Source: an uncultured Bacillota bacterium
GTDB taxonomy: Bacteria > Bacillota > Clostridia > Christensenellales > UBA1242
Assembly (NCBI GenBank): GCA_948465545.1
Contig: CAOJXO010000001.1
Span: forward strand, 95,728-159,727
Direction of reading: 5' to 3'
Length of the DNA stretch: 64,000 nucleotides
In this document: in pieces, positions 4,305 through 50,530 of the stretch
Layout: each line of letters begins with the position of its first letter
How positions within the stretch are numbered: position 1 is the first letter of the stretch
Notes under the pieces: generated by a model
Told to the model about the DNA's origin: nothing
What the model saw: only the letters and a program-made list of their open reading frames with translations
Database searches by the model: none
Made by a program: the position numbers and the translations under genes

Positions 4305-4329
4305 TCTAAGCCTCCTAAATTTACAAATA

Positions 4330-4358
4330 ATGTTAGCATATACCCTAAAAAATGTCAA
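4330..4358 (-). promoter_or_regulatory. sigma-A promoter of metG
   Basis: On the - strand: TTGACA (4358-4353), 17-nt spacer with TGc, then TAACAT (4335-4330). This predicts a ~20-nt leader containing the SD. Confidence 0.6.
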
Positions 4359-4494
4359 TTAAATTAATGTTTATCAAAATTATCAAACGGACATAATTAA
4401 TTTATGAAAAAGTTTTGGTTGTTTGGTTTTGGATTTATTTTAATGTGTAGCATAGTTGTTTTACTTTCAATATATGCCCCTCAACTTCATAATT

Positions 4495-4526
4495 AAAAAG
4501 AAGCGGTCTGTACCCGCCTCTTTTTT
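4495..4526. terminator. terminator downstream of uvrA
   Basis: GAAGCGG-tctgtac-CCGCCTC stem with one mismatch. It has T-runs on both strands. Confidence 0.6.
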
Positions 4527-36214: not shown

Positions 36215-36243
36215 TTGACTTGTTTTGCAATACAAGGTATAAT
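36215..36243 (+). promoter_or_regulatory. consensus sigma-A promoter of the (host) tRNA-Ile gene
   Basis: TTGACT (36215-36220), 17-nt spacer, TATAAT (36238-36243). It is the only near-perfect consensus promoter in the window. Confidence 0.8.
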
Positions 36244-36327: not shown

Positions 36328-36366
36328 AGAGGTGTAGCTCAGCTGGTTAGAGCACCACCCTGATAA
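36328..36366 (+). pseudogene. 5' half of host tRNA-Ile(GAU), truncated in the anticodon loop (attL side)
   Basis: AGAGGTG-TA-GCTC-AGCTGGTTA-GAGC-A-CCACC-CTGATAA, after which tRNA similarity is lost at 36367. The acceptor 5' arm AGAGGTG pairs with CATCTCT at 50362-50368. Confidence 0.85.
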
Positions 36367-36427
36367 AGAGAATTAGGGTCGGAGACGCAAGGTCAGAACT
36401 TGCCATGTCAAACACAATTTAATATGA

Positions 36428-36504
36428 TGGGATGTAGCTCAGTCGGTTAGAGCACCACCCTGATAAGGTGGGGGTCGGTGGTTCGAGTCCACTCATCCCA
36501 ACCA
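36428..36504 (+). tRNA. tRNA-Ile (anticodon GAU), complete, CCA-encoded, carried just inside the element
   Basis: Cloverleaf read by eye: TGGGATG / GCTC-AGTCGGTTA-GAGC / CCACC-CTGATAA-GGTGG / GGGTC / GGTGG-TTCGAGT-CCACT / CATCCCA-A-CCA. Confidence 0.9.
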
Positions 36505-36507
36505 TCG

Positions 36508-36535
36508 AAAAGTCCGTGTTTACGGACTTTTTTTT
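36508..36535 (+). terminator. rho-independent terminator after the element tRNA-Ile
   Basis: AAAGTCCGT-gttt-ACGGACTTT followed by T8. Confidence 0.85.
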
Positions 36536-36563
36536 ATGATTTTATAACTAAATTTAGCACAAA

Positions 36564-36599
36564 TTTTGACAGCAAATATACCTATTTTTGACAGCAAAT
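36564..36599 (+). repeat. two direct copies of TTTTGACAGCAAAT (candidate arm-type integrase sites)
   Basis: Identical 14-mers at 36564-36577 and 36586-36599, 22 bp apart. A third TGACAGCAAA copy lies at the other element end (50237-50246). Confidence 0.5.
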
Positions 36600-36716
36600 G
36601 TTTTTTTGCCAAAAAAGGACAAAAAAATAGACCGATAATTGCGATTTGCAACTATCGGTCTAAATTTACTTAAAACTGCCTAAAACTGATATATTTGTAG
36701 TCAAATTGTAGTCAAA

Positions 36717-38063
36717 CTACATTTCAAAATCTTTTTCTTTTTTGCGCTTTCGTTTTTCCAAAAGTTCAAGCAACTTATCAAGTTCGTCATCATTGAGATC
36801 TTCAAGTAAGTTTTGTGTTGTATTCGCCTGATCTGTCTTGTTGCCATCAACTGCATATTGTTTGTTTAATTTGTCGGTTGTTTTTTGAAAATATGAGCGG
36901 TCAACAGAGTTATATGTTGTGATTGTAGTTTTAACGGATTTGTGGCCCAAAAGTGCTTGAATAACTTTTGGGTTTTCATTATTCTCAAAAAGCATATTCG
37001 AATAGGTATGCCTTAGTCCATGAAAGTGAATCCCATATTTATCAAGTTTGTTTGACTTCAAAAATCTTTCAAGAATTGATTTTGTGCCAGAATAACTTCT
37101 CACACTTCCGTCACTATTACCAAAAACAAGCGAGGAATTTTGTGTTAAATTAACATTATTCTCTCGTCCAAAAAAGTGGCGATTTTCTTTCCATTCTTCC
37201 AAAGCTTGAATGAGAACATCTGGCATTGGCACTTCTCTAACAGAGCATGTCGTTTTCGTTTCACTGATGACGGTCACACGTTCTTTGACTTTCCCTTTTT
37301 CGTCAAACTTAGGGATGGTTGTTATTGCTCGTTTGATATTGATTGTCTTATTTTTAAAATCAATATCTTCCCAAGTGAGAGCCAATACTTCACCAGTTCT
37401 TAAACCTGCAAACATCATGCACATGCAAAGCGGTTTAAGAAATTCATGTGTGTTTAACTTGCTTAAAAATTCATCTCTCGCTTGCGGAGGGATTGCTTTA
37501 TATTTGTTTTCACTTTCATAAACTTTCCTTTCATTGCTTCGCACTCTTGTTCTTGTTGTAGGATTATTCGTCGCAAGTTTGTTATCAACAGCATAATTAA
37601 AAAATTGATTGAAGATAAATTTGACTTTCTTCACAACTGCAAGACTATATCCTTCTTCAAGCATTTCGTTAAGCACTTTCTGAATGACAATTGTGTCTAC
37701 TTCATCTATTTTCATATTCCCGATTTTAGGATCTATGTGCAATTTGAAATTTCTATATGTGTGTTCAAAAGTTCTTGGACTAACTTGCATTTTTTTAAAA
37801 ACTAAAAGCCACTCGTTCATCATCTCACCAATCGTTGTATTTTCAATATACTCATAATTATTGCTGCTTATTTTGTTCATTAATTTGTTGAGTTTGTCCA
37901 CGACTTCTAGACGCGATTTTCCGTAAACAGTCTTGCGAATTGTCTTACCATTTTCATTATATCCGGCAGTTGCAACGCCAGCCCATCTGCCATCTGATCT
38001 TTGGTATATTGACCCCTCATTGTTGCCACGTCTTGTTTTACTTCTTATTTTTTTCTTAGCCAT
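36717..38063 (-). CDS. int: tyrosine recombinase / phage-type integrase
   Basis: 448 aa. Catalytic signature: FAGLRTGEVLAL (Arg I), HGLRHTYSNMLF (H-x-x-R), LLGHKSVKTTITTY (His/Tyr). It is adjacent to the tRNA att site. Confidence 0.92.
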   Translation of the reverse strand: MAKKKIRSKTRRGNNEGSIYQRSDGRWAGVATAGYNENGKTIRKTVYGKSRLEVVDKLNKLMNKISSNNYEYIENTTIGEMMNEWLLVFKKMQVSPRTFEHTYRNFKLHIDPKIGNMKIDEVDTIVIQKVLNEMLEEGYSLAVVKKVKFIFNQFFNYAVDNKLATNNPTTRTRVRSNERKVYESENKYKAIPPQARDEFLSKLNTHEFLKPLCMCMMFAGLRTGEVLALTWEDIDFKNKTINIKRAITTIPKFDEKGKVKERVTVISETKTTCSVREVPMPDVLIQALEEWKENRHFFGRENNVNLTQNSSLVFGNSDGSVRSYSGTKSILERFLKSNKLDKYGIHFHGLRHTYSNMLFENNENPKVIQALLGHKSVKTTITTYNSVDRSYFQKTTDKLNKQYAVDGNKTDQANTTQNLLEDLNDDELDKLLELLEKRKRKKEKDFEM

Positions 38064-38316
38064 TTGTCACCTCACTTGCGTTGTTGTTTAAAGTCAGCCA
38101 AGTGACGAAATTAAGCACGCTTACAACTTGCCTTTTCCCAACTTTAGTTGTAGGAAAATCTTTGCTTCTCAAAAGATTTCTCACATTATCTCTTCCAAGC
38201 CCTGTAATTTTCATAATATCTTCACAATCTAAAAAATCTTTATCATATTTTGTTGAAATTCTATCCACTTCAGTTTGTATTAAATTGTTAATATTTAGTT
38301 GTTGATTGTTGTTCAT
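38056..38316 (-). CDS. xis: excisionase-family HTH DNA-binding protein
   Basis: 86 aa. It overlaps the int start by 8 nt. The HTH reads IMKITGLGRDNVRNLLRSKDFPTTKVGKRQVVSVLNFVTWL. Confidence 0.75.
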   Translation of the reverse strand: MNNNQQLNINNLIQTEVDRISTKYDKDFLDCEDIMKITGLGRDNVRNLLRSKDFPTTKVGKRQVVSVLNFVTWLTLNNNASEVTNG

Positions 38317-38495
38317 GTTTACTCCTCGTAGTTATATTTGTATTTATAAAAAATCGGTTTCGGGTATCCCGAAAGCTAAAAGATTGACGAGAACATTTGG
38401 TGATTCTGCCAAAAGCCTTTATTTTAGGGCAATTGGCAGATTTTATAACACCAAAAGTTTCTCACTTATCCTGTTTTCTTAAATCTCTATAAAAA

Positions 38496-39701
38496 TCACA
38501 TTTCAAAGTCTATAATTCCTTCTTCAACAAGCCTGCTAAACTTGGCTTCGTCAAGTCTTTGCATATATTCTTGAAAGGCACTCATAACTTCATATTCAAA
38601 TTGATTAGCAAGTCGCAAACACTCATTAAGTTGCTTTGCCAATTTCTTCTTTTGCATAAGTTTTTCTCTACGAACACTTGCATTAAGTTTTAATCTTTCG
38701 TTATCAATTTGTTTAATTTTGAAAGAATAGTCAATCACAATATTTCCAAGCCTGCGATAAATATCTTGCGTGTATTTCTTTTCAAAAAAGAATGGTTGTT
38801 TGCACCGATTTCGTTTGCAATAACATTCAAATCTTTCATCTTTATATTTTGCCAAATTAATAAAATCTTCATAGGCAACTTTTGAGAATTTTGATTTGTT
38901 TATCATATAACTTGTTATGCTGTCAATCTCAGATCGCAAACTTGACATATTCTCGCTTGCATAAGCAAGACTCCCTTTCTTTGAAAATCGGCCCGCAAGT
39001 GAAAGCAATTTGTTGTTGAGAATAAGCCCCATATTCTCGTTTAATTGCTCATTTACATATTCTTGAATAAGTTGTCTATTTCTTCTTTCTCGGGCTTTAA
39101 AATCAGTCGCAGCAAGCTCTAAATGTGCTTTAAATTCAAGAATGGCAGTTTTGGACAATTTGCCATTTGAAAACCCCTTGTCATCTTGTCGCGGACGCAG
39201 TCGAACCGGCTCTTTTTCAAAAAAGGATAAATGGATATGCCTGTTGTCGGTATTCTCGTGAAGTCCAGCATACCAAATCATATTGTCTGGATTAAGCCCT
39301 GCTCGTTTAAAAAACTTTGGCAATTCACTTTTCACAAGTTCATATGCCTGCTCATATGAATTGCACCAAGTCTTACCAAAGCTCTCTTCAAAGGTTATAA
39401 GCCCATCCCAAATAACAGACTGGGTTTCTCTTAATCGTTCTCTCAATTGCTTTTTATCCTTCTCTGATAAAAGTCCATTTTGATTAAATATGCCAGACGA
39501 TTTTTCTTTATTGTTTGCATACTCAACATAGTCTTTAAATTCTTGAATACCAGTTTGGATATAGTTAATATAATCTTTCGCTATGTTGGAAGAATAATAT
39601 TTTCTTTTCTCTTTATAAAAATCACTTGAATTGTTTGGCCCATAAAAGTTCAAGAAAAAGTTGACATTAGGCGTTTGATTATCTACCACCATTCTCCTCA
39701 T
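38496..39701 (-). CDS. relaxase (MobL/MobA-VirD2-like mobilization nuclease)
   Basis: His-triad region WYAGLHENTDNRHIHLSFF. The N-terminal YINYIQTG segment resembles MobL-type relaxases. It overlaps the upstream RHH gene. The start could instead be Met4 at 39692. Confidence 0.7.
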   Translation of the reverse strand: MRRMVVDNQTPNVNFFLNFYGPNNSSDFYKEKRKYYSSNIAKDYINYIQTGIQEFKDYVEYANNKEKSSGIFNQNGLLSEKDKKQLRERLRETQSVIWDGLITFEESFGKTWCNSYEQAYELVKSELPKFFKRAGLNPDNMIWYAGLHENTDNRHIHLSFFEKEPVRLRPRQDDKGFSNGKLSKTAILEFKAHLELAATDFKARERRNRQLIQEYVNEQLNENMGLILNNKLLSLAGRFSKKGSLAYASENMSSLRSEIDSITSYMINKSKFSKVAYEDFINLAKYKDERFECYCKRNRCKQPFFFEKKYTQDIYRRLGNIVIDYSFKIKQIDNERLKLNASVRREKLMQKKKLAKQLNECLRLANQFEYEVMSAFQEYMQRLDEAKFSRLVEEGIIDFEM

Positions 39702-40128
39702 ACTCTTTATTCATGATTTTGATTTTCTCATAATCAACATTGCAAAGCCCTTCACTAATGTCCCCGCCAACAATCTTATTGCCTTCGTTATTAAAAACTG
39801 CACAAGCAATATAGTTCAAAATCTTTTCTACAAATTTATTTTCAATATGTTGATCTGCACTATCAGCTTTTCTTTCACCATTTTGTCTTTTGAGTTCTTT
39901 GTTGATTTCGCTTAAATTTTCTTTAATTTCTGTCAAATTTATAATTTCATCATAGGCATTGTCTCCGAGCAATTTCTTTGCTCCAAGCAAAACGCAATGA
40001 CGAATAAAGTCTGCCATGTTGTCAAACTTTTTCTTGCTTTTGTCAAAAGCCTTTTCCAATGTTTCTTGATCCTCTTGTGTGTAAATTCGTAAAGTGTGTT
40101 GCAACTTCACTTTTTCTGGTTTTAACAT
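39679..40128 (-). CDS. MobC-like ribbon-helix-helix relaxosome accessory protein
   Basis: N-terminal strand-helix pattern (HTLRIYTQEDQETLEKAFDKS..MADFIRHCVLLGAKKLL). It sits immediately upstream of, and overlaps, the relaxase gene. Confidence 0.55.
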   Translation of the reverse strand: MLKPEKVKLQHTLRIYTQEDQETLEKAFDKSKKKFDNMADFIRHCVLLGAKKLLGDNAYDEIINLTEIKENLSEINKELKRQNGERKADSADQHIENKFVEKILNYIACAVFNNEGNKIVGGDISEGLCNVDYEKIKIMNKEYEENGGR

Positions 40129-40163
40129 TTTTACCTCCGTGTATTTTAAAATTTAGGTGCAAC

Positions 40164-40197
40164 AAAAAAAGAACGAGTGCAGGAAATCGTTCTTTTT
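40164..40197 (-). terminator. terminator after the sigma-like gene (alternatively an oriT inverted repeat)
   Basis: AAAGAACGA-gtgcaggaaa-TCGTTCTTT with a T7 run on the - strand. It lies in the 160-bp gap upstream of the mob genes. Confidence 0.55.
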
Positions 40198-40287
40198 CTG
40201 TTTGCTTCCTATAATATATAAAGGACATTTTAAAGTATAAAAGTTTAGGCAGTAAATGTATTTTTGATAGAAAATTTTAAAATTTTT

Positions 40288-40971
40288 CTATTTTTGTATT
40301 GATTTTATAAAATCAGTGACTGTTTTTGACATAAATTGCCAAAGTTTCTTTTGTTTTGGACTAAGCCCAACTCCAAGTTTATCTGCAGTTTTAATCGCTT
40401 GTGTCGCACCTTTTGCAAAATCTAAAATCTTATCTAAATCAAATTCAAAGTTCTCATTTGTCAAGCCTTCTTCAAGAGTGTCAATAAATTCATCTGTAAA
40501 ATGTTTGCAATGACTTTGCCAAAAATCTGTCTTAATAAAATCTTTATCTCTTGCAAGAAAGAAAACAAAATGCTTATAAGTTGTTTTCAAAAATTGCGTC
40601 AGTGCACTTTTGCTCATATTGTGTTTTTTGGCAATATCGCAAAGTTTCATATCTTTTTTAAATCTTTCAATCAAAATTTCTTTTTGTAGCGGTTGCAATT
40701 TTTCTGCAACTTTCCAAATTATTTCAGCAAAGATTTTATTATCAACCTCTTGCTCGATATCCACACTTTCATCTTTGATCGTCTCTATAAACTCAATCTC
40801 ATCGCCATCATCAGAAATGGTTTCAAAATAACTGCACTCATATTTACGTGCTTTTTTCATAAGTCTTCGCCAATATATATCGTTAGCCCAAAGATAGCGA
40901 GCAACTTCTTCACTGACTTCCAAGTCAATAGTTTTGTTATGTATTCGGTCTTTATACTTAATCCAAACCAT
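40288..40971 (-). CDS. sigma-70 region-4-like HTH regulator (227 aa)
   Basis: LQPLQKEILIERFKKDMKLCDIAKKHNMSKSALTQFLK resembles the sigma-70 r4 / LuxR-type HTH. The rest is unassigned. Confidence 0.5.
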   Translation of the reverse strand: MVWIKYKDRIHNKTIDLEVSEEVARYLWANDIYWRRLMKKARKYECSYFETISDDGDEIEFIETIKDESVDIEQEVDNKIFAEIIWKVAEKLQPLQKEILIERFKKDMKLCDIAKKHNMSKSALTQFLKTTYKHFVFFLARDKDFIKTDFWQSHCKHFTDEFIDTLEEGLTNENFEFDLDKILDFAKGATQAIKTADKLGVGLSPKQKKLWQFMSKTVTDFIKSIQK

Positions 40972-41027
40972 TCTTGCTCCTTTGCCAGATTATAACATAT
41001 ATGTTTCAACTTTGCTATGCATCTGAC

Positions 41028-41057
41028 AAAAAAAGACAAGCCAAAATATGGCTTGTC
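41028..41057 (-). terminator. rho-independent terminator ending the DGR transcription unit
   Basis: GACAAGCC-aaaatat-GGCTTGTC 8-bp stem followed by T7 on the - strand. Confidence 0.8.
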
Positions 41058-41080
41058 CTAAAAAGCGAGCATGAAAACCA

Positions 41081-41323
41081 TCAGCAAGACTTCCTTTTAA
41101 GTTTTTTGATTTCTTCTTTAAGTGCAAGAGTTTCTTCAGCAAGAGTTTTAAACTTTTCTTCGCTTGCTTTCATTTCTTTCTCAATTCCAACCCTGGATTT
41201 TTCATCCGCGTCAACATATCTTTCCATGATATCGAGTTTCTCTGCTTCCAACCCATCAAGCGTTTTAAGTTTTTCATCCAATGCTTTTTCAAATTGTTTT
41301 AATTGTTTTTCAACGTTTTCCAT
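41081..41323 (-). CDS. small coiled-coil protein (80 aa)
   Basis: AAGGAG RBS. Heptad-like, Glu/Lys-rich sequence. The gene is translationally close to the stop of the DGR target. Confidence 0.55.
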   Translation of the reverse strand: MENVEKQLKQFEKALDEKLKTLDGLEAEKLDIMERYVDADEKSRVGIEKEMKASEEKFKTLAEETLALKEEIKKLKRKSC

Positions 41324-41333
41324 AAGTCACTCC

Positions 41334-44261
41334 TTATAACGTTTGCTGACTTTCAGCTCTTTTCTCTCGAATCTCTTGGATATCTTTTCTCGCTTCTTTT
41401 GCAGCCTGTCTGATTTCATCGCCATACATTCTTGTCACTTCATCGTAGGTTTTGATGATGTATTGTGCACTGCGAGCGTCCGAATATCCGCTATATCCTC
41501 TGTGCTGTGCCTTTGGACTGGACTCTCTTTCAAACTTTTCTGAAAGTTCGCGTTTTAAATCGTTGTAGCCTTCGCCAGTTGTCACTCTTTCAACTTTCAT
41601 GCCATCTTTGTTCATTGCTGTCATAATTGCGACCGCAGACTCTTCAACAGCGTCCATAAGAGTTTTGGAAGTAACCCTGCTGTCTTCATGCTTGTTGCCT
41701 TTGCGCATTTCATCAAGAACTTTTGTTGGAATTTCAATGTTGTCATAGCAAACCGTCTTAGTTTGTGGGTCATACCAAATATATGCTTGTCCAAGCACTC
41801 TGGTCTCGCCAGTTGGCTTTCCATTTTCGTCCAAAATACTTTCTTCAAACACAAGAAACCCTGCGTTTGGATTTGTGTATCCATCATCAACACAAGTTTC
41901 TCCGTCCCCACCAAGCACTTGACAACAATTTGTAATGTCTCCAAGCACAAAGCCAAGCGGATCATCTTTTTCAAGAACTCTAAATTGCACGGGATTGCTT
42001 TCTTTTGCTTTGTCAGCTCTTATAATGTAGGTGTCTTTCAACTTTTTAGCAGTCTCATAAACTTCTTGAATATGGTCAAATTGTTCTTGATCATAGCCAT
42101 ATCTTCCGAGCAACTCCGCCAAAATTTCGTTTCCTTCTTCCACACCTTCATATTCAACAAAAGATGAATGTTCAGCAACAAATCTTGGGGAAAGTAATGC
42201 ACGCTCTTCATTTCCATTCACAACTCTGTTTGGATAGTTTTTCAAAATGCTTTCAAACGCATTGTGCGCTGCGCACAAATAATCTTGGCTGTCCATCAAA
42301 TCGCCATCTTTATCACGAAGGCGGAAGTTCATAAAGTCAGGATTGTCTTTATAATATTTCATGAAAAATTGAGCAAATGCTTTGTTGTATTCACCTTTAA
42401 GTGTCAATTTTGAAAATCTTGCATGAATTTCAGCACCAATTTGACTTGGCGTTGGATTTTTTACATACGCATATCCCTCGCGTCCAATAATAGCCTTTCC
42501 CTTTGCAACATATTGCAAAATATATTCAAAAGCCTTTTCACTTTCACCTTGATTTTCTGAAAAGCCACCAATTGCATAGTAAATTTTCATAAGATCAACA
42601 AGTGAATTATTTTTCTCAGTTCCTTCCAGAGTGTCAAAGCCAAGAGTTTTGACAAGTTTGCCCCAACGCCCGCTATTGTTGTTTACAAAATATTTTTCCA
42701 TTTGGCTGGAAGGGAAAACTTCCATCGTATATTCGGGTGGAATAAATTTGATTTTCTTTTCTTCACGCCAAACTTTAAGTTGAACATAGTTCTGTCTGAA
42801 ATTGTTTTCAAACCATTTGCTTACAGGTTTTAAGCCTTGTCCTGCAATTTGCCCGAAATTAATAGTGGCGTCAAAAGCTCCAGACATTCTTTCAGTTTCA
42901 AGTGTTGAAATGCTTTCTCTAACGCAAGATTTTTCAAGTTCAGGATCAACACTTGTTGTCATTGTCAATTTCGTTCCATCTTTTGACAAATAAATATATT
43001 TAAATGCACTGCCAGCAAAAGCTTTCTTATCAATTGAAATTCCTTTTGCTCCACATATAAATTCCAATTGCGTGTTTTGAAGACCTGAGAACGCATTTGC
43101 ACCAACTTTCTTTACGCCATCATGAACAATAATTTTTTCAATCCCTACGCATCCAGCAAACGCATAGTCAGCAATCTCTTTTTCGTATTCTGGGATAACA
43201 TATTCACGCGTTGGCTCACGCGTCAAATCAAGTGCTTGATACAAAAAACCGCTTTTTGAAAAATCCCATTTGTATGGAGTTTCAAATTCTGGATTTCCAT
43301 CCAATTCTTCACTTTTGGCAGAACTTAAAAAGCATCTTTGTAAGCTGTTTTGCCACATAGAACAATTTGAATGATGCCAGTCCGGATAAAATGGCAAGCC
43401 AGACAAGATTGCTTCTTCCGCTTCTAGCTCGATTGTCTCATCTGCACCAAATCTTTTTCCTTTTGGATTGATGCTTTTTGGCAGACGATCCCAGTTTGTT
43501 ATTTCAAATGTCACTGGCTCAACTTCAAGCCAGACTACAGCACCAGTTCTTGGCACAGCACTTCCATCTGCAAACTTTCTGTCGTTGTCATTCCAAACGA
43601 TTGTCCTGACATATTTTTTGCCATTAAGTTCAAATTCTGGATTTTGCTTTGACAAAAAGTCTTTTCCAGATTCTCTTTGACCATTCGTCGTGAAAAGTCT
43701 GCCTGTGCAAGTCAGTCCTGACTTCAAAATTCCACCGTTAAACATTTCTTCAAGCGCTTGTTGGATCTCGTCAGTCGCTTTTGTCTTTGGATATTCTCCA
43801 ATTTTCAAAAAATGTTTTTCTTTCCCACTTTTTGTCTTTTTAGTCTCAAAAATTTCGCTCGCCGACGCGCTTCGCGCGGCGATTAAAGATTGAAGATTAA
43901 GGGACAAAGCGGGAACGGAGCCAAGGGAACTAAGGTTTACAGAGGTAGAGGACCGCGAGCCGTCACTGGTCACACGTCTTACATAGTTTCCATCGTCAGC
44001 CGAACGCGACCAATAAACTCCTGTAAATTTGTCGTTTTCTGCTGTATAGGAAGAATTCTGCCAAGCAAAATTGCATAAAGCAAAGTCTGTGTTTGATTTT
44101 CTTCTTTCTTCGTTTGTTCTGTCAGCCATTTCATCCCAAGAAAGAAGTCTCACGCTGTCAGTTGTGTCAAACTCTCTGCTGGCGTTGTCTCCACGATTGT
44201 CCGTGTTTTTGTTTTTTCTTGCCACAATCATTTGCATAAAGTTTATTTTTTCTTTTGCCAT
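41334..44261 (-). CDS. DGR target protein (975 aa): N-terminal variable domain, BspA-type leucine-rich repeats, large unassigned C-terminal region; no signal peptide
   Basis: GGAGA RBS and ATG at 44261. The VR covers aa ~84-119 (WSRSADDGNYVRRVTSDGSRSSTSVNLSSLGSVPA). The LRR_5-like segment is aa ~353-425 (IPEYEKEIADYAFAGCVGIEKIIVHDGVKKVGANAFSG..). The N-terminus is hydrophilic. Confidence 0.9.
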   Translation of the reverse strand: MAKEKINFMQMIVARKNKNTDNRGDNASREFDTTDSVRLLSWDEMADRTNEERRKSNTDFALCNFAWQNSSYTAENDKFTGVYWSRSADDGNYVRRVTSDGSRSSTSVNLSSLGSVPALSLNLQSLIAARSASASEIFETKKTKSGKEKHFLKIGEYPKTKATDEIQQALEEMFNGGILKSGLTCTGRLFTTNGQRESGKDFLSKQNPEFELNGKKYVRTIVWNDNDRKFADGSAVPRTGAVVWLEVEPVTFEITNWDRLPKSINPKGKRFGADETIELEAEEAILSGLPFYPDWHHSNCSMWQNSLQRCFLSSAKSEELDGNPEFETPYKWDFSKSGFLYQALDLTREPTREYVIPEYEKEIADYAFAGCVGIEKIIVHDGVKKVGANAFSGLQNTQLEFICGAKGISIDKKAFAGSAFKYIYLSKDGTKLTMTTSVDPELEKSCVRESISTLETERMSGAFDATINFGQIAGQGLKPVSKWFENNFRQNYVQLKVWREEKKIKFIPPEYTMEVFPSSQMEKYFVNNNSGRWGKLVKTLGFDTLEGTEKNNSLVDLMKIYYAIGGFSENQGESEKAFEYILQYVAKGKAIIGREGYAYVKNPTPSQIGAEIHARFSKLTLKGEYNKAFAQFFMKYYKDNPDFMNFRLRDKDGDLMDSQDYLCAAHNAFESILKNYPNRVVNGNEERALLSPRFVAEHSSFVEYEGVEEGNEILAELLGRYGYDQEQFDHIQEVYETAKKLKDTYIIRADKAKESNPVQFRVLEKDDPLGFVLGDITNCCQVLGGDGETCVDDGYTNPNAGFLVFEESILDENGKPTGETRVLGQAYIWYDPQTKTVCYDNIEIPTKVLDEMRKGNKHEDSRVTSKTLMDAVEESAVAIMTAMNKDGMKVERVTTGEGYNDLKRELSEKFERESSPKAQHRGYSGYSDARSAQYIIKTYDEVTRMYGDEIRQAAKEARKDIQEIREKRAESQQTL
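43863..43881 (-). promoter_or_regulatory. GC-rich hairpin 23 nt downstream of the VR 3' end
   Basis: CGCGC-GAA-GCGCG (read on the - strand), extendable by 2 bp across one mismatch. It lies in an otherwise AT-rich gene. Confidence 0.55.
43905..44013 (-). repeat. DGR variable repeat (VR)
   Basis: 109 bp aligned to 45570..45678. There are 90 identities and 19 mismatches, and every mismatch is at an A of the TR coding strand. Confidence 0.93.
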
Positions 44262-44344
44262 GCGTTTCTCCTTAAAACTTACATATTAAGTATATCACAT
44301 TTTGTAAAAAAAGTAAATACCTGTGCCTTAAAAAGTTATTCCTC

Positions 44345-45358
44345 TTATGTTTTTATGTATCGTTGCAACAAATTTAAGGCATTTGAATGGCATAAATGTG
44401 CTTTATAAGCGTTTAGTCGCACATTGATATATTCGTCATCGACAAGTTCTTCTTTCCTAAATCGATAAATATGTTTGATATTTCGCCTTAATCTCAATTT
44501 TGCTTGAGCTCTTAAAAGTCGAATGATTTTGCCATTCTCATTTAAAATTGTTCTAAATCCCAAGAAATCAATTCCATTTGAGAGTTTTCCAATTTGTGTT
44601 TTCTCATTAAGTTCAAGATGAAGCTTTTCGTTGCAATAATTTTCTATCTCATTTTTGCAATGTTTGAGATATTCCTTATCTTTATGCACCAAAATCATGT
44701 CGTCCATATAGCGCACATAATATTTTATCCTAAGTTTCTCTTTTATAAAATGGTCAAGTCCATTAAGATAAAAAAGTGCAAACCATTGACTTGTTTGATT
44801 ACCTATTGGGAGCCCAACATTTGTGTCAAAATTTCTGCTGTCGATTATTTGATTTATTATCCACATGACTTTGTCATCAAAATCAACTTTTAAAAGTTGT
44901 CTTTTTAAAATGTCATGGTCGATATTTTGAAAATATTTTCTTACATCGCATTTCAAAAAATAGCCCACATTGTTTTTGTTGATATTATAAAATTTACGCA
45001 AGAATAATTTCAATCTATCAAGTCCAAACATTGTTCCTTTGCATTTTCTGCAAGCAACATTGTCAAAAATCAGTTTATTCTCAAGTTTAGATTCCAATAT
45101 GTTTGTGCAAAAAGCCATCAAAACAACTCTGTCTTTATATGACAGAGCTTCAATGTTTCGCTTTTTGGGCTCGTATATATAAAATTGTTTATATTTGCCG
45201 ATTTGATATGTTTGCTGTAAAAGTTTTTTTGACATTTCAGTCAAATTCTGACTTAAATTTATTTCAAAAGAGATTGTTTCTTTTTTATGCTGCCTTGAAA
45301 GTCTGCATTTTTTGTGTGCAGCGAGCAACTTTTCAAATGTGAAAGCATCTTCAAGCAT
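44345..45358 (-). CDS. DGR reverse transcriptase
   Basis: The start is MLEDAFTFEKLL at 45358, preceded by AAGGAG. RT motifs are present, including PIGNQTSQ (the [ILV]GxxxSQ motif characteristic of DGR RTs) and YVRYMDDMILV (YxDD). Confidence 0.93.
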   Translation of the reverse strand: MLEDAFTFEKLLAAHKKCRLSRQHKKETISFEINLSQNLTEMSKKLLQQTYQIGKYKQFYIYEPKKRNIEALSYKDRVVLMAFCTNILESKLENKLIFDNVACRKCKGTMFGLDRLKLFLRKFYNINKNNVGYFLKCDVRKYFQNIDHDILKRQLLKVDFDDKVMWIINQIIDSRNFDTNVGLPIGNQTSQWFALFYLNGLDHFIKEKLRIKYYVRYMDDMILVHKDKEYLKHCKNEIENYCNEKLHLELNEKTQIGKLSNGIDFLGFRTILNENGKIIRLLRAQAKLRLRRNIKHIYRFRKEELVDDEYINVRLNAYKAHLCHSNALNLLQRYIKT

Positions 45359-45569
45359 ACAATCTCCTTTTAATTTTAAAGATGCCACCACCTGAAAGAC
45401 AGAAAACTTCCAAAGAAACATTCGTTGGTTGTTATGGTGGCAATTTTCTTCCAATTCTTTCGCAAGAGTTTGGAAAAGAGTAAGATTCCTTTGCCTTAAA
45501 CACGGGGTTGCTCCACTTGGATGCAATCACTTCTGGCATTTTATCAAGCATAATGCTTGCTTTATAAGG

Positions 45570-45678
45570 CAAATCGGGAACGGAGCCAAGGTTTCTATTG
45601 TTTACATTGTTATAGTTCCGCGAGCCGTCATTGTTCACATTTCTTACATTGTTTTCATCGTTAGCCGAACGCGACCAA
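45570..45678 (-). repeat. DGR template repeat (TR)
   Basis: Non-coding copy between avd and the RT gene. Read in the VR frame it has 12 Asn (AAC/AAT) codons (WSRSANDENNVRNVNNDGSRNYNNVNNRNLGSVPD). A 211-nt spacer follows before the RT start. Confidence 0.93.
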
Positions 45679-45724
45679 AACAGACAGTCCCAAAAATAAT
45701 CTTACCTTAATTAAAGCGTCACCG

Positions 45725-46300
45725 CTATAATCCGTATTTATTGCCGAGACGATCGGCGTCACTTTTTCTCCAAGCAACAAGCAGATTTATACAATCCGCA
45801 ACTTGCAAAGAGATTTGCTCATATTGCTTTTTCAATATACATTGGCTTTCAAGTGACAAAAAAGCCATGTATCCAAGAAGTTTCAGTTTTAAATATGCTG
45901 TGTGTTGACATTCTTTCCTTCGGTCAATGTTTTTGGCATTGTTCATTTGTAGTGAATTTGCCTCAATCAAATTTTCCAAAGCGTCCAAACAATAATTTTG
46001 CAATCTGTTTACAAAAACAGCTCGAAATCGCTTAGGCGACTTTTCTGTCACGGTGATGACATATGCTGCCAACTTTTTTGTTTTTGTGACAACCAAAAAC
46101 TCGCTTGTGCCTTGACGGATTTTCACCGGCTCGTCAATTTCTGGAATTTCGTTTTTAATGGCAGACGTTTCTTTATATTTTTTGTTTTCTCCGCGTGCAA
46201 CACCTTTTGCGGTTGCAACTCGGTCATCATAAATTTCCTTATTGTCAGCCACATTTGGGATTGTTAATTGAACTCCAATAGGATTTCTTCCTTTGTTCAT
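45725..46300 (-). CDS. avd: Avd-like four-helix-bundle accessory protein with ~70-aa N-terminal extension
   Basis: The C-terminal ~120 aa (KKLAAYVITVTEKSPKRFRAVFVNRLQNYCLDALENLIEANS...QYEQISLQVADCINLLVAWRKS) match the Avd / S23-like helical bundle pattern. The gene sits directly upstream of TR. ATG at 46300 with a GGAAAGGA RBS is preferred over the TTG at 46327. Confidence 0.7.
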   Translation of the reverse strand: MNKGRNPIGVQLTIPNVADNKEIYDDRVATAKGVARGENKKYKETSAIKNEIPEIDEPVKIRQGTSEFLVVTKTKKLAAYVITVTEKSPKRFRAVFVNRLQNYCLDALENLIEANSLQMNNAKNIDRRKECQHTAYLKLKLLGYMAFLSLESQCILKKQYEQISLQVADCINLLVAWRKSDADRLGNKYGL

Positions 46301-46352
46301 ATCCTTTCCTTTTATATATTTTATCAAAAAAATTTATGCTTTTCAATAGGTT

Positions 46353-46754
46353 TTAGAAAATATCTGTAATTGCAAACTTTGCATAGCATATTGACCTTTT
46401 GTCTTTAAAAATGTGCACATCTTTAAGTTTGGCATCTTCTTGCGTTAAGCAAAATACAAAATTTAAAATCAAATCGTTATACAAAACATCATCCATATAT
46501 AAAGGATAGTATTTGTCAAAATAGTCAACAAACTTCTCATGCTTATAAAGATATTCTCTAATCAACAAATGCACTTTATCATAGTTCCGTTGTCTTGTTT
46601 TCTTATTAAGGTTTGCAGCGCAAAAGCAAATTTCTTTTGGGATTATTTCTTTTAAGTCTTGATAGACAACATTGATGAGAAACTTCTCATCTTCTTTTGT
46701 TTGATATAAATGATCAATTAGCTTTCGCTTTTCATCTTGGGTTAAAGTAATCAT
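46353..46754 (-). CDS. hypothetical protein (133 aa)
   Basis: Clean ORF with an RBS, 25 nt upstream of avd and 17 nt downstream of the SLOG gene. No motif recognised. Confidence 0.55.
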   Translation of the reverse strand: MITLTQDEKRKLIDHLYQTKEDEKFLINVVYQDLKEIIPKEICFCAANLNKKTRQRNYDKVHLLIREYLYKHEKFVDYFDKYYPLYMDDVLYNDLILNFVFCLTQEDAKLKDVHIFKDKRSICYAKFAITDIF

Positions 46755-46771
46755 TTTTCTTTTCCTTTAAT

Positions 46772-47290
46772 TTATCTATAATCCTCTGGGTTTATAATTC
46801 TCACTTTGCATCCATTTTCTTGTGCGAAACGCACAGTGTTTCCTGTTCCGCTTCTTTTTCCGCTCCAGCAAGCAATACAAACACTTGAATGTTGCACCAT
46901 CCACAAATTTCTTTCATTAAAACATTCTTGAGTAGGATGGTCTGACAAAATTATTTTGTCGTCACAGTGTCCTAAGATTTTCCAATATCTTTCTTGCTGC
47001 TTTGGTTTCCAATTTTTCTCTTGTCCTTTGCATGGGATAACAGCAATCAACTTGATATGCGGAAAGTCATTTTGCAATTCAATTAAGGTTTCAGCGGCAA
47101 TCATATCAAAGCCCTCTGCCATACCTGTCAAAAAGGTTGTTATTCCATAATTGATTGCGCCAATATAAAGATTTTTCAAATCCTCTTTAAATTTGGCACA
47201 ACTCGGTCTTGTTTCGTTATAGCCCCAAGGCAAGCCAAAAGGTCTGTGTCCGGTGTTGCAAGCGGTTTCTTCTTTAATAATGTTTATCAT
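46772..47290 (-). CDS. SLOG-superfamily protein (DUF1273/YpsA-like)
   Basis: The start is MINIIKEE at 47290 with a GGAAGGA RBS. The TGHRP motif, the GMAEGFD segment and the C-terminal GTGNTV are typical of the YpsA/DUF1273 SLOG fold. Confidence 0.7.
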   Translation of the reverse strand: MINIIKEETACNTGHRPFGLPWGYNETRPSCAKFKEDLKNLYIGAINYGITTFLTGMAEGFDMIAAETLIELQNDFPHIKLIAVIPCKGQEKNWKPKQQERYWKILGHCDDKIILSDHPTQECFNERNLWMVQHSSVCIACWSGKRSGTGNTVRFAQENGCKVRIINPEDYR

Positions 47291-47520
47291 TTCATCCTTC
47301 CTTTTATATCGCGTATGTATCAATACAAAAATGACTTATAATTGAATACTTTTGCAGAATTTGATTAAAAATATATCAGTGTTTGACTTATATAGTGCAG
47401 AGTATATCACACAATGATATAAAATTGCAAATTATTTTGACAAAATTAAAAATTCACATCACTCTTTGATTAAGGCAAAAGATTGCCAGAATTTAAAATT
47501 AAAAAGTGAGGTGAGTTATT

Positions 47521-47853
47521 ATGAAAAATAAGGAAAATTTTAATAAAGAATATAAGGATTTAGTTTTTAAAATCGGTTATTTTAGAAATAAAAACAACTT
47601 GTCGGCAAGAGACACAAGTTTGCGTTTGGGTTTCAGCGATAGTTTTATAAACAGAATTGAAACATATAAAGTTGAATTGAAAGTTTCAACATTGTTGAAG
47701 TTTATGGAGCTGGTGGGAATAACGCCGGAAGAATTTTTCTATGCCAATCCAGAAGATTATGCAAAAGATAAAGAGATCTTTGACCTTATCAAATCATTAA
47801 GTTCTGAAAATAAAGAAACAATACTTGATTTGGCTAAAAAGTTGAAAAGATAA
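47521..47853 (+). CDS. XRE-family helix-turn-helix transcriptional regulator
   Basis: 110 aa with a GAGGTGAG RBS. The HTH reads LSARDTSLRLGFSDSFINRIETYK. Confidence 0.75.
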   Translation: MKNKENFNKEYKDLVFKIGYFRNKNNLSARDTSLRLGFSDSFINRIETYKVELKVSTLLKFMELVGITPEEFFYANPEDYAKDKEIFDLIKSLSSENKETILDLAKKLKR

Positions 47854-47862
47854 ATTGACAAC

Positions 47863-47895
47863 AAAAAACCGAGGGATATTTTCTCTCGGTTTTTT
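47863..47895. terminator. bidirectional terminator
   Basis: AAACCGAGGG-atatttt-CTCTCGGTTT flanked by A and T runs, between convergent genes. Confidence 0.8.
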
Positions 47896-47923
47896 GTATT
47901 TTTAGTTTTAAAGAATTTTGATT

Positions 47924-48646
47924 TTAATCTTCCAACACAACCACATTCACTTTATAAGTGTGAGCAGTACAGGCATCCAGTGCTATCATATCTTTTGTTA
48001 TGAAAGGCTCAAAATTTTCATTTTCTCCAAATTCATCATATTTCTCCGGATATTTTTCGTGCCACAAAGCACTGCAATGCCAATGTCCACACACAATCGT
48101 TTTGTTTGGCTCGTAAATTTCATATCTAAACATATCAACAGGGTTTTGCCAACGAGCTTTTTCCCAGCGCTCTTTGCGGGCATTTCGCCAATCGGCGTCA
48201 TATAAACAGCAATTTTCAATTATAGGTATCCAGCCATGAACAAAGATATAATGTTTTGTTTCAAAATAATCAACGCACAAAGACAGAACTTCTTCAAGCC
48301 CAGTTTCTTTTGCAATTTCTTTCAAGTCAAATTTGCTAACTTGCCATTCTGGGCACAAATCAACGATTGTATAAGCCGTTCCATTTGAAAGATCAGCAAA
48401 ATTGTTTTTATTTCGTTCAATCATTTCTTCCATTAAATATTCATGGTTGCCTTTGATTAGGATTATCTTATTTTTATGAGCCAAAACAAAATCAATAATT
48501 TGTTTTGGCTGACGACCTCTATCAAACAGATCACCACAAACAACTATTTTATGCTGTTGGTTGTCTATGTCAAAATCGTTTTTTTTCAAAGCCGACATCC
48601 ATTCATCAAAGAACCCATGAATGTCAGCACTTACAAAGTATTTCAT
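47924..48646 (-). CDS. calcineurin-like metallophosphoesterase
   Basis: Motifs are DIHG, GDLFDRG, GNHE and VHGW..CGHWH. Confidence 0.8.
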   Translation of the reverse strand: MKYFVSADIHGFFDEWMSALKKNDFDIDNQQHKIVVCGDLFDRGRQPKQIIDFVLAHKNKIILIKGNHEYLMEEMIERNKNNFADLSNGTAYTIVDLCPEWQVSKFDLKEIAKETGLEEVLSLCVDYFETKHYIFVHGWIPIIENCCLYDADWRNARKERWEKARWQNPVDMFRYEIYEPNKTIVCGHWHCSALWHEKYPEKYDEFGENENFEPFITKDMIALDACTAHTYKVNVVVLED

Positions 48647-48665
48647 ATTTACTCTCTTCTATCGG

Positions 48666-49964
48666 TTACATAATGCAAAAGACTGCATATAGTGGCACTG
48701 ACTTTATATTATTTTCAAAGCCAAAGTTTTTTGCTGAAATGCGGATTGCATAGGCTGGCTTAAATTGTTGCATATAAACCGCCAAACTTTTTGAGCGTGT
48801 ATTTTCACCAGATTTTACTTCAATCGGCACTACATCTTTATTAATGCGAGTTATAAAGTCAATTTCAGCATCAGATTTGCTTGTCCAATAGTATGCTGAA
48901 AGTTTGTTTACATCCAGCTGATTGAAAACATAATTCTCTGTCAATCCGCCTTTAAATTCAAAATTGTCATTGTCTAGAATAATATCGTCAAATTGGAGTT
49001 TCTGATTTGCACAGCATAATCCAACATCATTCATGTAAAATTTAAAATCATCCAGTGATTTAAAGGCATCAAGTGGAAGTTTAATTTGTTCAATCCTATA
49101 AAGTTGCTTTGCAATACCTGCCAAACACAGCCATTCAATTGCGTCTTCAAATTCTCTTGCTCTGCCACCACTTTTGATTAAGGAATATTTAAACTTTCTA
49201 TTTTCTTTTGCAAGTTGTGTAGTTATGTTTTTGTAAACAAGCCTCACTTTTGGGATCTCTGTGGCTTTGTTATATTTGCTCATATCATTGAAATAGGCTT
49301 GAAGAATTGTCTCTTGTTTAACTCTCACCAACTCATAATTACCAGTTTTCACAAATTCTTCAACAACCTCTGGCATTCCTCCGACAAACAAATAACTTTT
49401 ATATAAATCAATGGCTTCATTATGAAAAGGTCTTGCAAGTGGAGAGTTTTCCGCATAACATCTTTTAATTTCTTCAATTAAAACCTCATAGTTTTCATTT
49501 TGTGCAAGTAAAAATTCTTCAAAATCCATTGGTGCCATTGTCATAAATTGAACTTTCCCGACAGGGAATGAATAACTTCCTCTGTTTAGCGAAACTCCAA
49601 GCAAAGAACCCGTGGCAATTATATGATAATCATTTGCTTCTTCATTAAAATATTTTAATGAAGTCAATGCCTTTGGACAGCATTGAATTTCATCGAAAAT
49701 AATTAAAGTTTTTTCTTTGAAAATTTCTTTCTTTTTATGAGCACCAATCAACTTCAGAATCCTTGTTGGATCCAAGTTGTCAAAAAAATCTTTCAAACTT
49801 TCATCTTGCTCAAAATTGCAATAAACAGCATTGACATATTCTCGACTTCCGAACAAGTTCGTAATATAGGTTTTACCGACTTGTCGTGGTCCTTGTAAAA
49901 TCAAAGGCTTTCGATCTTCTGAATTTTTCCATTTTAATAAATCATTGTATATTTTTCTCTCCAT
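48666..49964 (-). CDS. AAA+ ATPase of the AAA_14/DUF4143 type
   Basis: Walker A (GPRQVGKT), Walker B (LIIFDEIQ), and a C-terminal restriction-endonuclease-like tail (EIDFI...PIEVK). Confidence 0.75.
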   Translation of the reverse strand: MERKIYNDLLKWKNSEDRKPLILQGPRQVGKTYITNLFGSREYVNAVYCNFEQDESLKDFFDNLDPTRILKLIGAHKKKEIFKEKTLIIFDEIQCCPKALTSLKYFNEEANDYHIIATGSLLGVSLNRGSYSFPVGKVQFMTMAPMDFEEFLLAQNENYEVLIEEIKRCYAENSPLARPFHNEAIDLYKSYLFVGGMPEVVEEFVKTGNYELVRVKQETILQAYFNDMSKYNKATEIPKVRLVYKNITTQLAKENRKFKYSLIKSGGRAREFEDAIEWLCLAGIAKQLYRIEQIKLPLDAFKSLDDFKFYMNDVGLCCANQKLQFDDIILDNDNFEFKGGLTENYVFNQLDVNKLSAYYWTSKSDAEIDFITRINKDVVPIEVKSGENTRSKSLAVYMQQFKPAYAIRISAKNFGFENNIKSVPLYAVFCIM

Positions 49965-50235
49965 TTTTTACTCCTCGTTTTAATAATAATATAGAAAAAC
50001 ACAAAAGTCAAGCAGAAATACCATTTTTTTGGAGATTGTCAAGGAGAAAAATTACACTTTTTTGGAGATAGTGCACATCTCAGCAATTAAAATGTCTTTC
50101 CCAACTTTAAAAATTCGCCAAAATGCTTCTATAGCCTTCTTAACCATTTTATATAGTTTTAGGCAGTCTCAAAACACTCAATTTACACTAAAAGGTGACT
50201 TTTGCAGTAAACTATTGTCAACTTTTTAAATTATG

Positions 50236-50247
50236 CTGACAGCAAAA
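50236..50247 (+). repeat. third copy of the TGACAGCAAA motif near attR
   Basis: CTGACAGCAAAA, ~80 bp inside the right element boundary. It matches the two left-end copies. Confidence 0.4.
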
Positions 50248-50325
50248 ACTATTTATTATTGCCAATTAAGTTTATTTTAGGCACTTATAGGAAAGAGAGT
50301 AAAATCTCTGCCAAATCAAACACTT

Positions 50326-50372
50326 CCCTGATAAGGTGGGGGTCGGTGGTTCGAGTCCACTCATCTCTACCA
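50326..50372 (+). pseudogene. 3' half of host tRNA-Ile(GAU) (attR side)
   Basis: CCCTGATAA-GGTGG-GGGTC-GGTGG-TTCGAGT-CCACT-CATCTCT-A-CCA. No 5' half precedes it. The acceptor arm matches the 5' fragment at 36328, not the element tRNA. Confidence 0.85.
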
Positions 50373-50384
50373 CTATATACAAAA

Positions 50385-50424
50385 CGCTATAAGCCTGAAA
50401 AATAAAGGCCTATAGCGATTTTTT
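50385..50424 (+). terminator. terminator of the original host tRNA-Ile gene
   Basis: CGCTATAAGCC...GGCCTATAGCG stem with one mismatch, followed by T6. Confidence 0.7.
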
Positions 50425-50530
50425 ATTTCTTAATCAATTTGTGAAATTTTACTCCGATTTAGCGTATTTTTGCCAAAGTGTGCCAAATGTGTGCCAAAAC
50501 TAAAATAAAAGAGAGATTTTTATCTCTCTT

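Follow-up and report, generated by a model that had tools for sequence, protein, structure and literature searches.

The window analyzed here, 64,000 nucleotides of contig CAOJXO010000001.1 from an uncultured Bacillota bacterium (Clostridia; Christensenellales), contains the two halves of a gene for transfer RNA (tRNA)-Ile(GAU) some 14 kb apart, with a complete tRNA-Ile(GAU) gene between them. What divided the host gene, and was its function lost or replaced? The explanation that we consider very probable is that an integrative mobilizable element (IME) entered the anticodon loop of the host tRNA-Ile(GAU), disabled its target and carried its own complete tRNA.

The 5' half (half A, 36328..36366, plus strand) comprises the acceptor 5' strand AGAGGTG, the D arm, the anticodon-stem 5' strand CCACC and the loop CTGATAA. 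It starts 85 nt downstream of a near-consensus promoter (36215..36243, plus strand; TTGACT-17-TATAAT, 11/12 consensus positions). The 3' half (half C, 50326..50372, plus strand) reads CCCTGATAA-GGTGG...CATCTCT-A-CCA and is followed by a hairpin with a T-run (50381..50428, plus strand), the terminator of the original gene. This terminator escaped a simple terminator scan because of its long loop, and folding energy was used instead (-15.9 kcal/mol, z = -4.5). Neither half alone was called as a tRNA, and after 36328..36366 had been joined to 50335..50372 in silico, ARAGORN called a 77-nt tRNA-Ile(gat) whose acceptor stem has six Watson-Crick pairs and one G-U. The initial annotation, made from the sequence of the window, had proposed that a 5' half behind a consensus promoter and a 3' half 14 kb downstream with its own terminator belong to one host tRNA gene, that AGAGGTG and CATCTCT pair with each other, and that the joined halves would score as a tRNA. 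Each of these points was borne out.

Same-species contigs were identified through an exact match to the DegV protein encoded just to the right of half C. In these contigs, an intergenic region of 367 bp lies between DegV and the iPGM side. Three of them (L013, L016, and L022) carry an uninterrupted 77-nt tRNA, composed of half A and the rest of half C, with identical promoter and terminator sequences. Contig L019 is a partial empty site with an intact anticodon region, L014 holds an occupied right junction (attR), and further same-species contigs end inside the tRNA. Compared to L013, no base of the window matches the empty site beyond 36366, and exactly nine match to the left of 50335. The host part of attL is the tRNA 5' half itself (36328..36366, plus strand), with the shared core at 36358..36366, while attR (50326..50372, plus strand) consists of the second core copy (50326..50334) and the displaced host 3' half (50335..50372), behind which the host terminator is now stranded. 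The tRNA split is a real, polymorphic insertion of exactly 13,968 bp into the host tRNA-Ile(GAU), bounded by the 9-bp direct repeat CCCTGATAA, and the uninterrupted gene postulated in the initial annotation was seen in other assemblies of the same species.

The complete tRNA-Ile(GAU) gene between the halves (tRNA B, 36428..36504, plus strand; acceptor stem TGGGATG/CATCCCA, encoded CCA) was called by ARAGORN and scored 72.5 bits with the Rfam tRNA model. It is identical to the joined host tRNA at 70/77 positions, the differences being confined to the acceptor stem and the D loop. As B is missing from the empty site, it came in with the element. An identical B, at the same distance from the integrase gene (int), was found in elements with 85-88%-identical integrases (P0003 and P0004) in at least five other chromosomal contexts. 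B belongs to the element; the initial annotation had described the complete tRNA and its arms correctly, but overlooked its role as the cognate copy of the element. B lies 61 nt inside the left junction in the same orientation as the host promoter, which after insertion faces half A, a 61-nt spacer and then B. No terminator-like site was detected between this promoter and B, and B is followed by its own intrinsic terminator (36507..36540, plus strand; an 11-pair stem and a T-run). A promoter candidate for B within the spacer (TTGCCA-17-TATGAT, 36400..36428) was rejected, since its start would fall inside the tRNA. No other tRNA-Ile is present within the window. Most likely, the function of the target was replaced by B and not lost.

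Two further observations concern these tRNA genes. All tRNA-Ile(GAU) genes of host and element examined here (window 36328..36504; L013 6987..7063) start with A1-U72 or U1-A72 and not with the usual G1-C72. In addition, the Rfam family HPnc0260, a Helicobacter antisense RNA, matches the minus strand of the window at 36466..36610 and the equivalent positions in L024, L041, L044, L046, and L048 with 49-58 bits (gathering score 59). The antisense of the tRNA 3' half accounts for this match, which is probably not meaningful.

The same layout was found well beyond the window. In the tRNA sense, the order in the P0003 and P0004 elements is host promoter, 39-nt tRNA-Ile 5' half ending in CCCTGATAA, spacer, B, terminator, repeat pair and int, and the spacer is the same 61-nt sequence or a close variant (GGTAATTT...). 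The 5' halves contributed by the hosts vary: AGAGGTG in the window and L024, AGAGATG in L006, AGGCTTG with the anticodon-stem strand CTACC in L001 and L025, and TGGCTTG in L005, L007, and L011. The element thus occurs in tRNA-Ile genes with several different acceptor stems. The far ends of the related elements were reached through the ATPase gene at their right end, and revealed attR 3' halves with CAAGCCA (L005/L026 and L007/L028) or with CAAGCCT and the anticodon-stem strand GGTAG (L001/L030). In four independent pairs (window, L001/L030, L005/L026, and L007/L028), the attL 5' half pairs with the attR 3' half at 7/7 positions, whereas the same 5' halves form only 4-5/7 pairs with the 3' strand of B. 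The halves match each other and not the tRNA in between, as had been noted for the window. The elements of L005/L026 and L007/L028 lie in a TGGCTTG tRNA-Ile with the same neighbors (an LbH/hexapeptide side and an adh_short-HTH-GPD side), in opposite orientation and with different terminators, which suggests either an inversion or two inverted tRNA copies at this locus.

More distant integrases gave the same picture. Elements with P0069 (57% identity) and P0020 (65%) show this layout at tRNA-Ile and carry complete tRNAs of their own (AGGATTG/CAATCCT and TGGCTTG/CAAGCCA). They contain one to three stacked units of 5' half plus spacer, and cargo genes such as purA lie between their int and tRNA. 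The elements with P0072 and P0113 (54%) show it at tRNA-Thr(GGT), with the loop TTGGTAA; here, three stacked halves precede a complete tRNA-Thr in L051, one half in L052, and one half with a spacer of ~190 nt in L054. The carried tRNA is always cognate to the target, in the Ile-targeting and the Thr-targeting relatives alike. The layout, a disabled target and a carried tRNA, is a property of an integrase clade spanning 54-88% identity and two tRNA targets. The hosts are recorded as uncultured Christensenella, Christensenellaceae and Eubacteriales metagenome-assembled genomes (MAGs) from the mouse gut catalogue; a scan of genome contigs with the spacer retrieved three species representatives, all of them mouse-gut MAGs. 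Housekeeping-type genes for adenylosuccinate synthetase (PurA), an AP endonuclease and a tyrosyl-tRNA synthetase were seen between int and the spare tRNA (L040-L047 ~3890..5218; L041 3867..4730; L031 1065..2294).

Why attL does not work as a tRNA can be read from the spacer (36367..36427, plus strand), in which a decayed tRNA 3' half precedes the 5' leader of B. In the window, ~10 nt are inserted behind the anticodon loop, the hairpin GCAAG-GTCAGAA-CTTGC resembles a T arm, CATGTCA forms a pseudo acceptor strand, and a CCA is lacking. Across ten variants the spacer measures 61-63 nt. When the spacers were aligned to the true 3' half, they showed an insertion of 10-14 nt directly past the loop and a damaged 3' strand of the anticodon stem (GGTCG or GTTTGG instead of GGTGG). 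The T arm is nearly intact in the type iii spacer (AGTGG-TTCGATC-CCACT, acceptor strand CATTCCA); in the other spacers it is decayed yet still paired, and no spacer contains a CCA. Between the window (GCAAG/CTTGC) and L048 (GCAGG/CCTGC), the decayed arm changed on both sides while keeping the pair; L031 reads GCGGG/CCTGC. We therefore read the spacer as what was probably a canonical attP 3' half, later disabled.

ARAGORN found no tRNA at attL or attR of the window. With the Rfam tRNA model, the attL hybrid of the window (36328..36411) reached 27.3 bits (E = 3e-4), below the gathering score of 29, with an 'anticodon loop' of 18 nt, in agreement with the earlier claim that the target tRNA is not regenerated. 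The attL hybrids of relatives scored 30.7-47.9 bits, and that of L001 was called as an 87-nt tRNA by ARAGORN. In minimum free energy folds of four spacer types, ACCCUGA(U), i.e. the stem strand and the first loop bases with most or all of the anticodon, pairs with U(U/C)(A/G)GGG of the spacer. As the 5' strand of this helix is invariant, covariation cannot probe it; moreover, the TTAGGG motif was out of register between spacer types in the MAFFT alignment, and individual folds were compared instead of counting covariation. The attL hybrid is a pseudo-tRNA, and its anticodon is predicted to lie hidden within a helix.

A short motif, TGCCAWRTCAAACAC, is found 2 nt ahead of the attR core (50310..50324) and a second time in the spacer, ~12 nt upstream of B (36401..36415). 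It could be a binding site or the remnant of an old spacer unit, and it is missing from the right ends of P0125-type elements, i.e. relatives whose right-end AAA_14/DUF4143 ATPase is P0125, 93% identical to that of the window. The right end of the element (50262..50325) was considered as a decayed unit of core and spacer; as only TGCCAWRTCAAACAC is common to both, the resemblance was judged too weak.

The position of the crossover was narrowed by comparing element ends. The initial annotation had proposed the 9-bp repeat as crossover core. The repeat is indeed present at both junctions, but the relatives reduce the likely exchange region to the 7-nt loop CTGATAA. To the left of the loop, identity with the tRNA extends over 17 nt at the right end of P0125-type elements (...GAGCACCACCCTGATAA), over 9 nt in the window element, and over 0-2 nt at the right ends of other elements (...TATT|CTGATAA and ...TTTC|CTGATAA). 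A C/T difference at base 2 of the 9-mer goes with the element right end in L026, L028, and L031. To the right, identity ceases after CTGATAA plus 0-6 bases, depending on the spacer type. The segment common to all elements compared is the 7-nt anticodon loop. Exchange most likely took place within this loop, the exact cleavage positions being deduced from these boundaries. A loop of this length agrees with the overlap of 6-8 bp usual for tyrosine recombinases (PMC10865867).

The reconstructed attP junction reads ...TCAAACACTT-CCCTGATAA-AGAGAATTAGGG... and is flanked by repeated 9-14-mers, which are candidate binding sites of the integrase. By k-mer analysis, two direct repeats of TTTTGACAGCAAAT (36564..36599, plus strand) are candidate arm-type sites of the P' arm, and relatives have analogous repeat pairs at this position; TTGTAGTCAAA forms another pair (36695 and 36706). 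Candidate sites of the P arm (50155..50246, plus strand) are AGTTTTAGGCAGT (50155), which recurs inverted at 36675..36687, and TGACAGCAAA (50237). The sequence TGACAGCAA(A) recurs at 50237, 36567, and 36589. B sits inside the P' arm, between the core and the repeats.

The element contains 13 open reading frames (ORFs), and all but one of its genes lie on the minus strand. Convergent with the tRNA is a tyrosine integrase of 448 aa (36717..38063, minus strand; Pfam Phage_integrase, Phage_int_SAM_3, and Phage_int_M), with 564 homologues at E<=1e-30; nothing above 33% identity to it was found in phage (INPHARED) and plasmid collections. It is followed by a small Xis-like helix-turn-helix (HTH) protein of 86 aa (38056..38316, minus strand; weak HTH_17 match), whose position upstream of int is kept in all relatives, and by a MobL-family relaxase of 401 aa (38496..39701, minus strand; Pfam MobL, E = 6e-24). 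Two further genes kept in relatives (39679..40971, minus strand) encode proteins of 149 aa, without Pfam match, and of 227 aa, with a weak sigma-70 region 4-like HTH. Among the 13 ORFs, Pfam searches detected no phage structural or lysis genes, and no type IV secretion, coupling-protein or mating-pore domains. As int, Xis-like and MobL genes are present while phage structural and mating-pore genes are lacking, the element is classified as an IME, and its gene content suggests that it is mobilizable.

The cargo includes a diversity-generating retroelement (DGR; 41334..46327, minus strand). It consists of a 975-aa LRR_5 target ORF with the variable repeat (VR, 43905..44013), a reverse transcriptase (44345..45526), the template repeat (TR, 45570..45678) and an Avd-like gene (45725..46327). 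Over 109 nt, TR and VR share 83% identity and show mismatches at TR adenines, and Pfam returned RVT_1 and a weak bAvd match. The VR lies near the N-terminus of the target ORF (~aa 83-119, weak DUF6273 match) and not at its C-terminus. In relatives, the VR stretch is either a separate gene of 99-111 aa followed by a leucine-rich repeat protein of 663-857 aa (L005, L006, and L036) or part of a fused 965-975-aa ORF (L001 and L007). The remaining cargo (46353..49964, Pfam) comprises a 133-aa ORF, a YpsA/SLOG protein, an HTH_3 regulator on the plus strand, a metallophosphoesterase and an AAA_14/DUF4143 ATPase. Pfam and repeat searches thus recovered the int, xis, relaxase, cargo and DGR listed in the initial annotation.

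B also offers a new attB. That the spare tRNA is itself used as a target follows from L034/L036, L040, L043, L047, and L053. In each of these, the 3' half of an element-type tRNA comes after a foreign right end, and the two meet at the loop; in L040, L043, L047, and L053, this 3' half stems from the resident element's own tRNA. L031 shows two related elements in direct contact, the right end of the first adjoining the spacer and complete tRNA of the second, whose integrase has 435 aa. In the stack of L046, all three 5' halves differ from one another, and the three spacer variants belong to two types. An older unit was seen upstream of the TGGCTTG-type target in L005 (11700..11900), L007 (11700..11870) and L044 (5545..5781, minus strand). 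It comprises a 5' half, a stretch of 85-150 nt restoring GGTGG, a T arm (GGTTCAACTCC) and an acceptor-like strand, and resembles a tRNA with a large insertion in the anticodon loop (47.9 bits as tRNA with Rfam in L044). In our reading, this unit is a fossil left by another family of elements and has become fixed in several lineages of hosts. A 471-aa integrase of a different kind and a 73-aa gene were found beside a window-type attR, right after a tRNA 3' end of the CATCCCA type (L034 79..1727; L036 49..1697); it seems that a third family of elements, unrelated to the others, makes use of this tRNA's 3' end.

In the mechanism that we propose, the tyrosine integrase would recombine attP with the anticodon loop of the host tRNA-Ile(GAU), with which it has only CCCTGATAA in common. 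The element sequence past the core provides a crippled 3' half and leaves attL non-working, and integration sets the self-contained B, with its own terminator, directly behind the host tRNA promoter. Transcripts from this promoter would run through half A and the spacer into B, to be released by RNase P and 3' trimming. The function of the host gene itself would be lost until precise excision, which would restore it. As the spare tRNA is self-contained, the host acceptor 5' strand need not match the 3' strand of the element, and tRNA-Ile genes with differing acceptor stems could serve as targets; the pairing of only 4-5/7 positions with B supports this host-range rationale. Because B contains the target loop, the spare tRNA would be a new landing site, which would account for the stacks and tandem arrays in relatives: a further copy may enter the resident spare tRNA, and the tandem pair may then collapse, either by homologous recombination or in the assembler. 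The element may also be stabilized in its host, as imprecise loss would remove the only working copy at the locus. We hold the structural account with high confidence, and the functional account, that is expression of the spare tRNA, the need for it and its host-range benefit, with moderate confidence.

Could the arrangement have arisen in a simpler way? The order of tRNA, terminator and integrase resembles the end of a standard tRNA-int island, so that the complete tRNA could be taken for the repaired target of a canonical integration and the 5' half upstream for an unrelated older fragment. This reading is refuted by the empty site, which holds only the AGAGGTG/CATCTCT tRNA and no TGGGATG tRNA; furthermore, the pairing partner of the displaced attR 3' half is the 5' half upstream and not the complete tRNA, whose 5' half moves with the element into other hosts. 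We give it practically no credence. That the split and the stacked units are artefacts of assembling repeated tRNA sequences from metagenomes is very improbable. The single-unit arrangement of the window recurs in many independent assemblies and host contexts with both junctions consistent, and stacked units often differ in sequence, as in L046, and therefore cannot result from collapsing identical repeats, even if several same-species contigs do end inside the tRNA and the relatives stem from short-read assemblies.

A different objection is that B is only a passenger or leftover without any replacement role, in a host that would have further tRNA-Ile(GAU) genes and could lose this one at no cost. 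In many bacteria, several ribosomal RNA (rRNA) operons contain a tRNA-Ile(GAU) gene; the window itself contains no further tRNA-Ile. We nevertheless regard this explanation as unlikely. The carried tRNA always shares the anticodon of the target, in Ile- and Thr-targeting relatives alike. It invariably follows the junction directly and in the same orientation, mostly at a distance of 61-63 nt, for integrases down to 54% identity. B has the score of a normal tRNA and shows no sequence change between elements in different hosts. Such regularity is hard to explain without selection.

Several points weigh against the replacement of a disabled target by B and against a currently active element. Further host copies of tRNA-Ile(GAU), for example in rRNA operons, would make the spare non-essential, and a need for B in cells carrying the element is presumed. 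Transcription of B from the host promoter is suggested by the geometry of the locus. The host tRNA and the spare begin with unusual first base pairs (A1-U72 and U1-A72, respectively), and aminoacylation of both is presumed. No excised circle with an attP junction was found in the collections searched: the attR junction and the attL/spacer junction had no exact match in IMG/VR, the type-i spacer had none in JGI metagenomes, and a contig encoding a 100%-identical integrase (P0001) stops 114 nt after int, so that no junction was recovered. For this reason, current mobility rests on the polymorphism between empty and occupied sites. As all related sequences are metagenome assemblies or MAGs, in which stacked 100-nt repeats and tandem elements assemble poorly, copy numbers may be wrong.

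The very probable account, an IME that disables its target and brings its own tRNA, has a precedent in phages. Tyrosine integrases of actinobacteriophages with tRNA-dependent lysogeny (Fionnbharth/K4, cluster L, Gaia, BrutonGaster, and Mollymur) use a core of 8-17 bp without rebuilding a tRNA, and lysogens are viable only with the cognate tRNA that the phage encodes (Guerrero-Bustamante & Hatfull, mBio 2024; PMC10865867). The Lj965 prophage of Lactobacillus johnsonii was cited there as a possible further case outside Actinobacteria. Three sequence-level hallmarks of tRNA-dependent lysogeny are recognizable in our element. As in these phages, a tyrosine integrase with what appears to be arm-type organization uses an attB in a host tRNA gene, the core is short (9 bp) and no tRNA is rebuilt at attL, and a cognate complete tRNA, absent from the empty site in the case of B, is carried by the element, as it is by the tRNA-Thr(GGT) relatives. 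Unlike in the phages, the carrier is a MobL-relaxase element with a DGR from low-GC gut Clostridia, the attL partner is a recognizable crippled tRNA 3' half, the 5' halves accumulate in stacks, and the carried tRNA serves again as attB. The tRNA of Fionnbharth is encoded elsewhere in the genome and has its own demonstrated promoter (PMC10865867), whereas B lies 61 nt from the core, co-oriented, in the P' arm and behind the host promoter. The requirement for the tRNA was established experimentally in the phages (PMC10865867), and is proposed here from sequence.

With canonical tRNA islands (Islander, PMC4383910), the element shares a tyrosine integrase beside a tRNA and a displaced 3' tRNA fragment at the far end. 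It differs in that the 3' portion of attP, which in canonical islands rebuilds a chimeric tRNA at attL, is disabled, and in that an extra 5' fragment is left. As in canonical islands, the crossover falls in a 7-nt anticodon loop flanked by a symmetric anticodon stem. Crossover in the anticodon loop is reportedly among the sublocation classes of tRNA integration distinguished by Williams in 2002. The int-xis-relaxase module without conjugation apparatus, the size of 14 kb and the site-specific integration into a tRNA gene correspond to IMEs of Firmicutes (PMC5704250). In a literature search, we found no IME or integrative and conjugative element described with both a disabled target tRNA and a complete cognate copy, which is absence of evidence and not proof of novelty. 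The principle is known from phages since 2024; what appears to be new is its use by a non-phage mobilizable element of gut Clostridia, with a spare tRNA in a position to capture the host promoter.

A broader reading, which we put forward tentatively and consider somewhat less likely than its opposite, extends the mechanism to purpose. A whole clade of non-phage mobilizable elements of gut Clostridia would 'disable and replace' at tRNA-Ile(GAU) and tRNA-Thr(GGU), and the crippled 3' half would be kept on purpose: it would block mismatched chimeric tRNAs in foreign hosts, and its tRNA-like shape may still help RNase P/Z to process the dicistronic precursor. The spare tRNA would widen the host range and act as a portable landing pad, and each invasion would leave a dated fossil of 100 nt (5' half plus spacer) upstream of the current tRNA.

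For genome annotation, the finding means that island finders expecting a regenerated tRNA and a displaced 3' fragment will misplace the left end of such elements. Likewise, tRNA annotators will call some attL pseudo-tRNAs as genes, as ARAGORN did in L001 and as some Rfam scores above the gathering threshold indicate. The module of int, attP and tRNA could become an integration vector for poorly tractable Clostridia. For the biology of these elements, a benefit of the design suggests itself: as crossover in the loop splits the acceptor stem between host and element, a canonical element would create mismatched chimeras wherever the stems differ, which a self-contained tRNA avoids. The stacked 5' halves constitute a readable record of serial invasions at one locus, and tRNA-dependent integration is extended from actinobacteriophages to conjugatively mobilizable elements of gut anaerobes.

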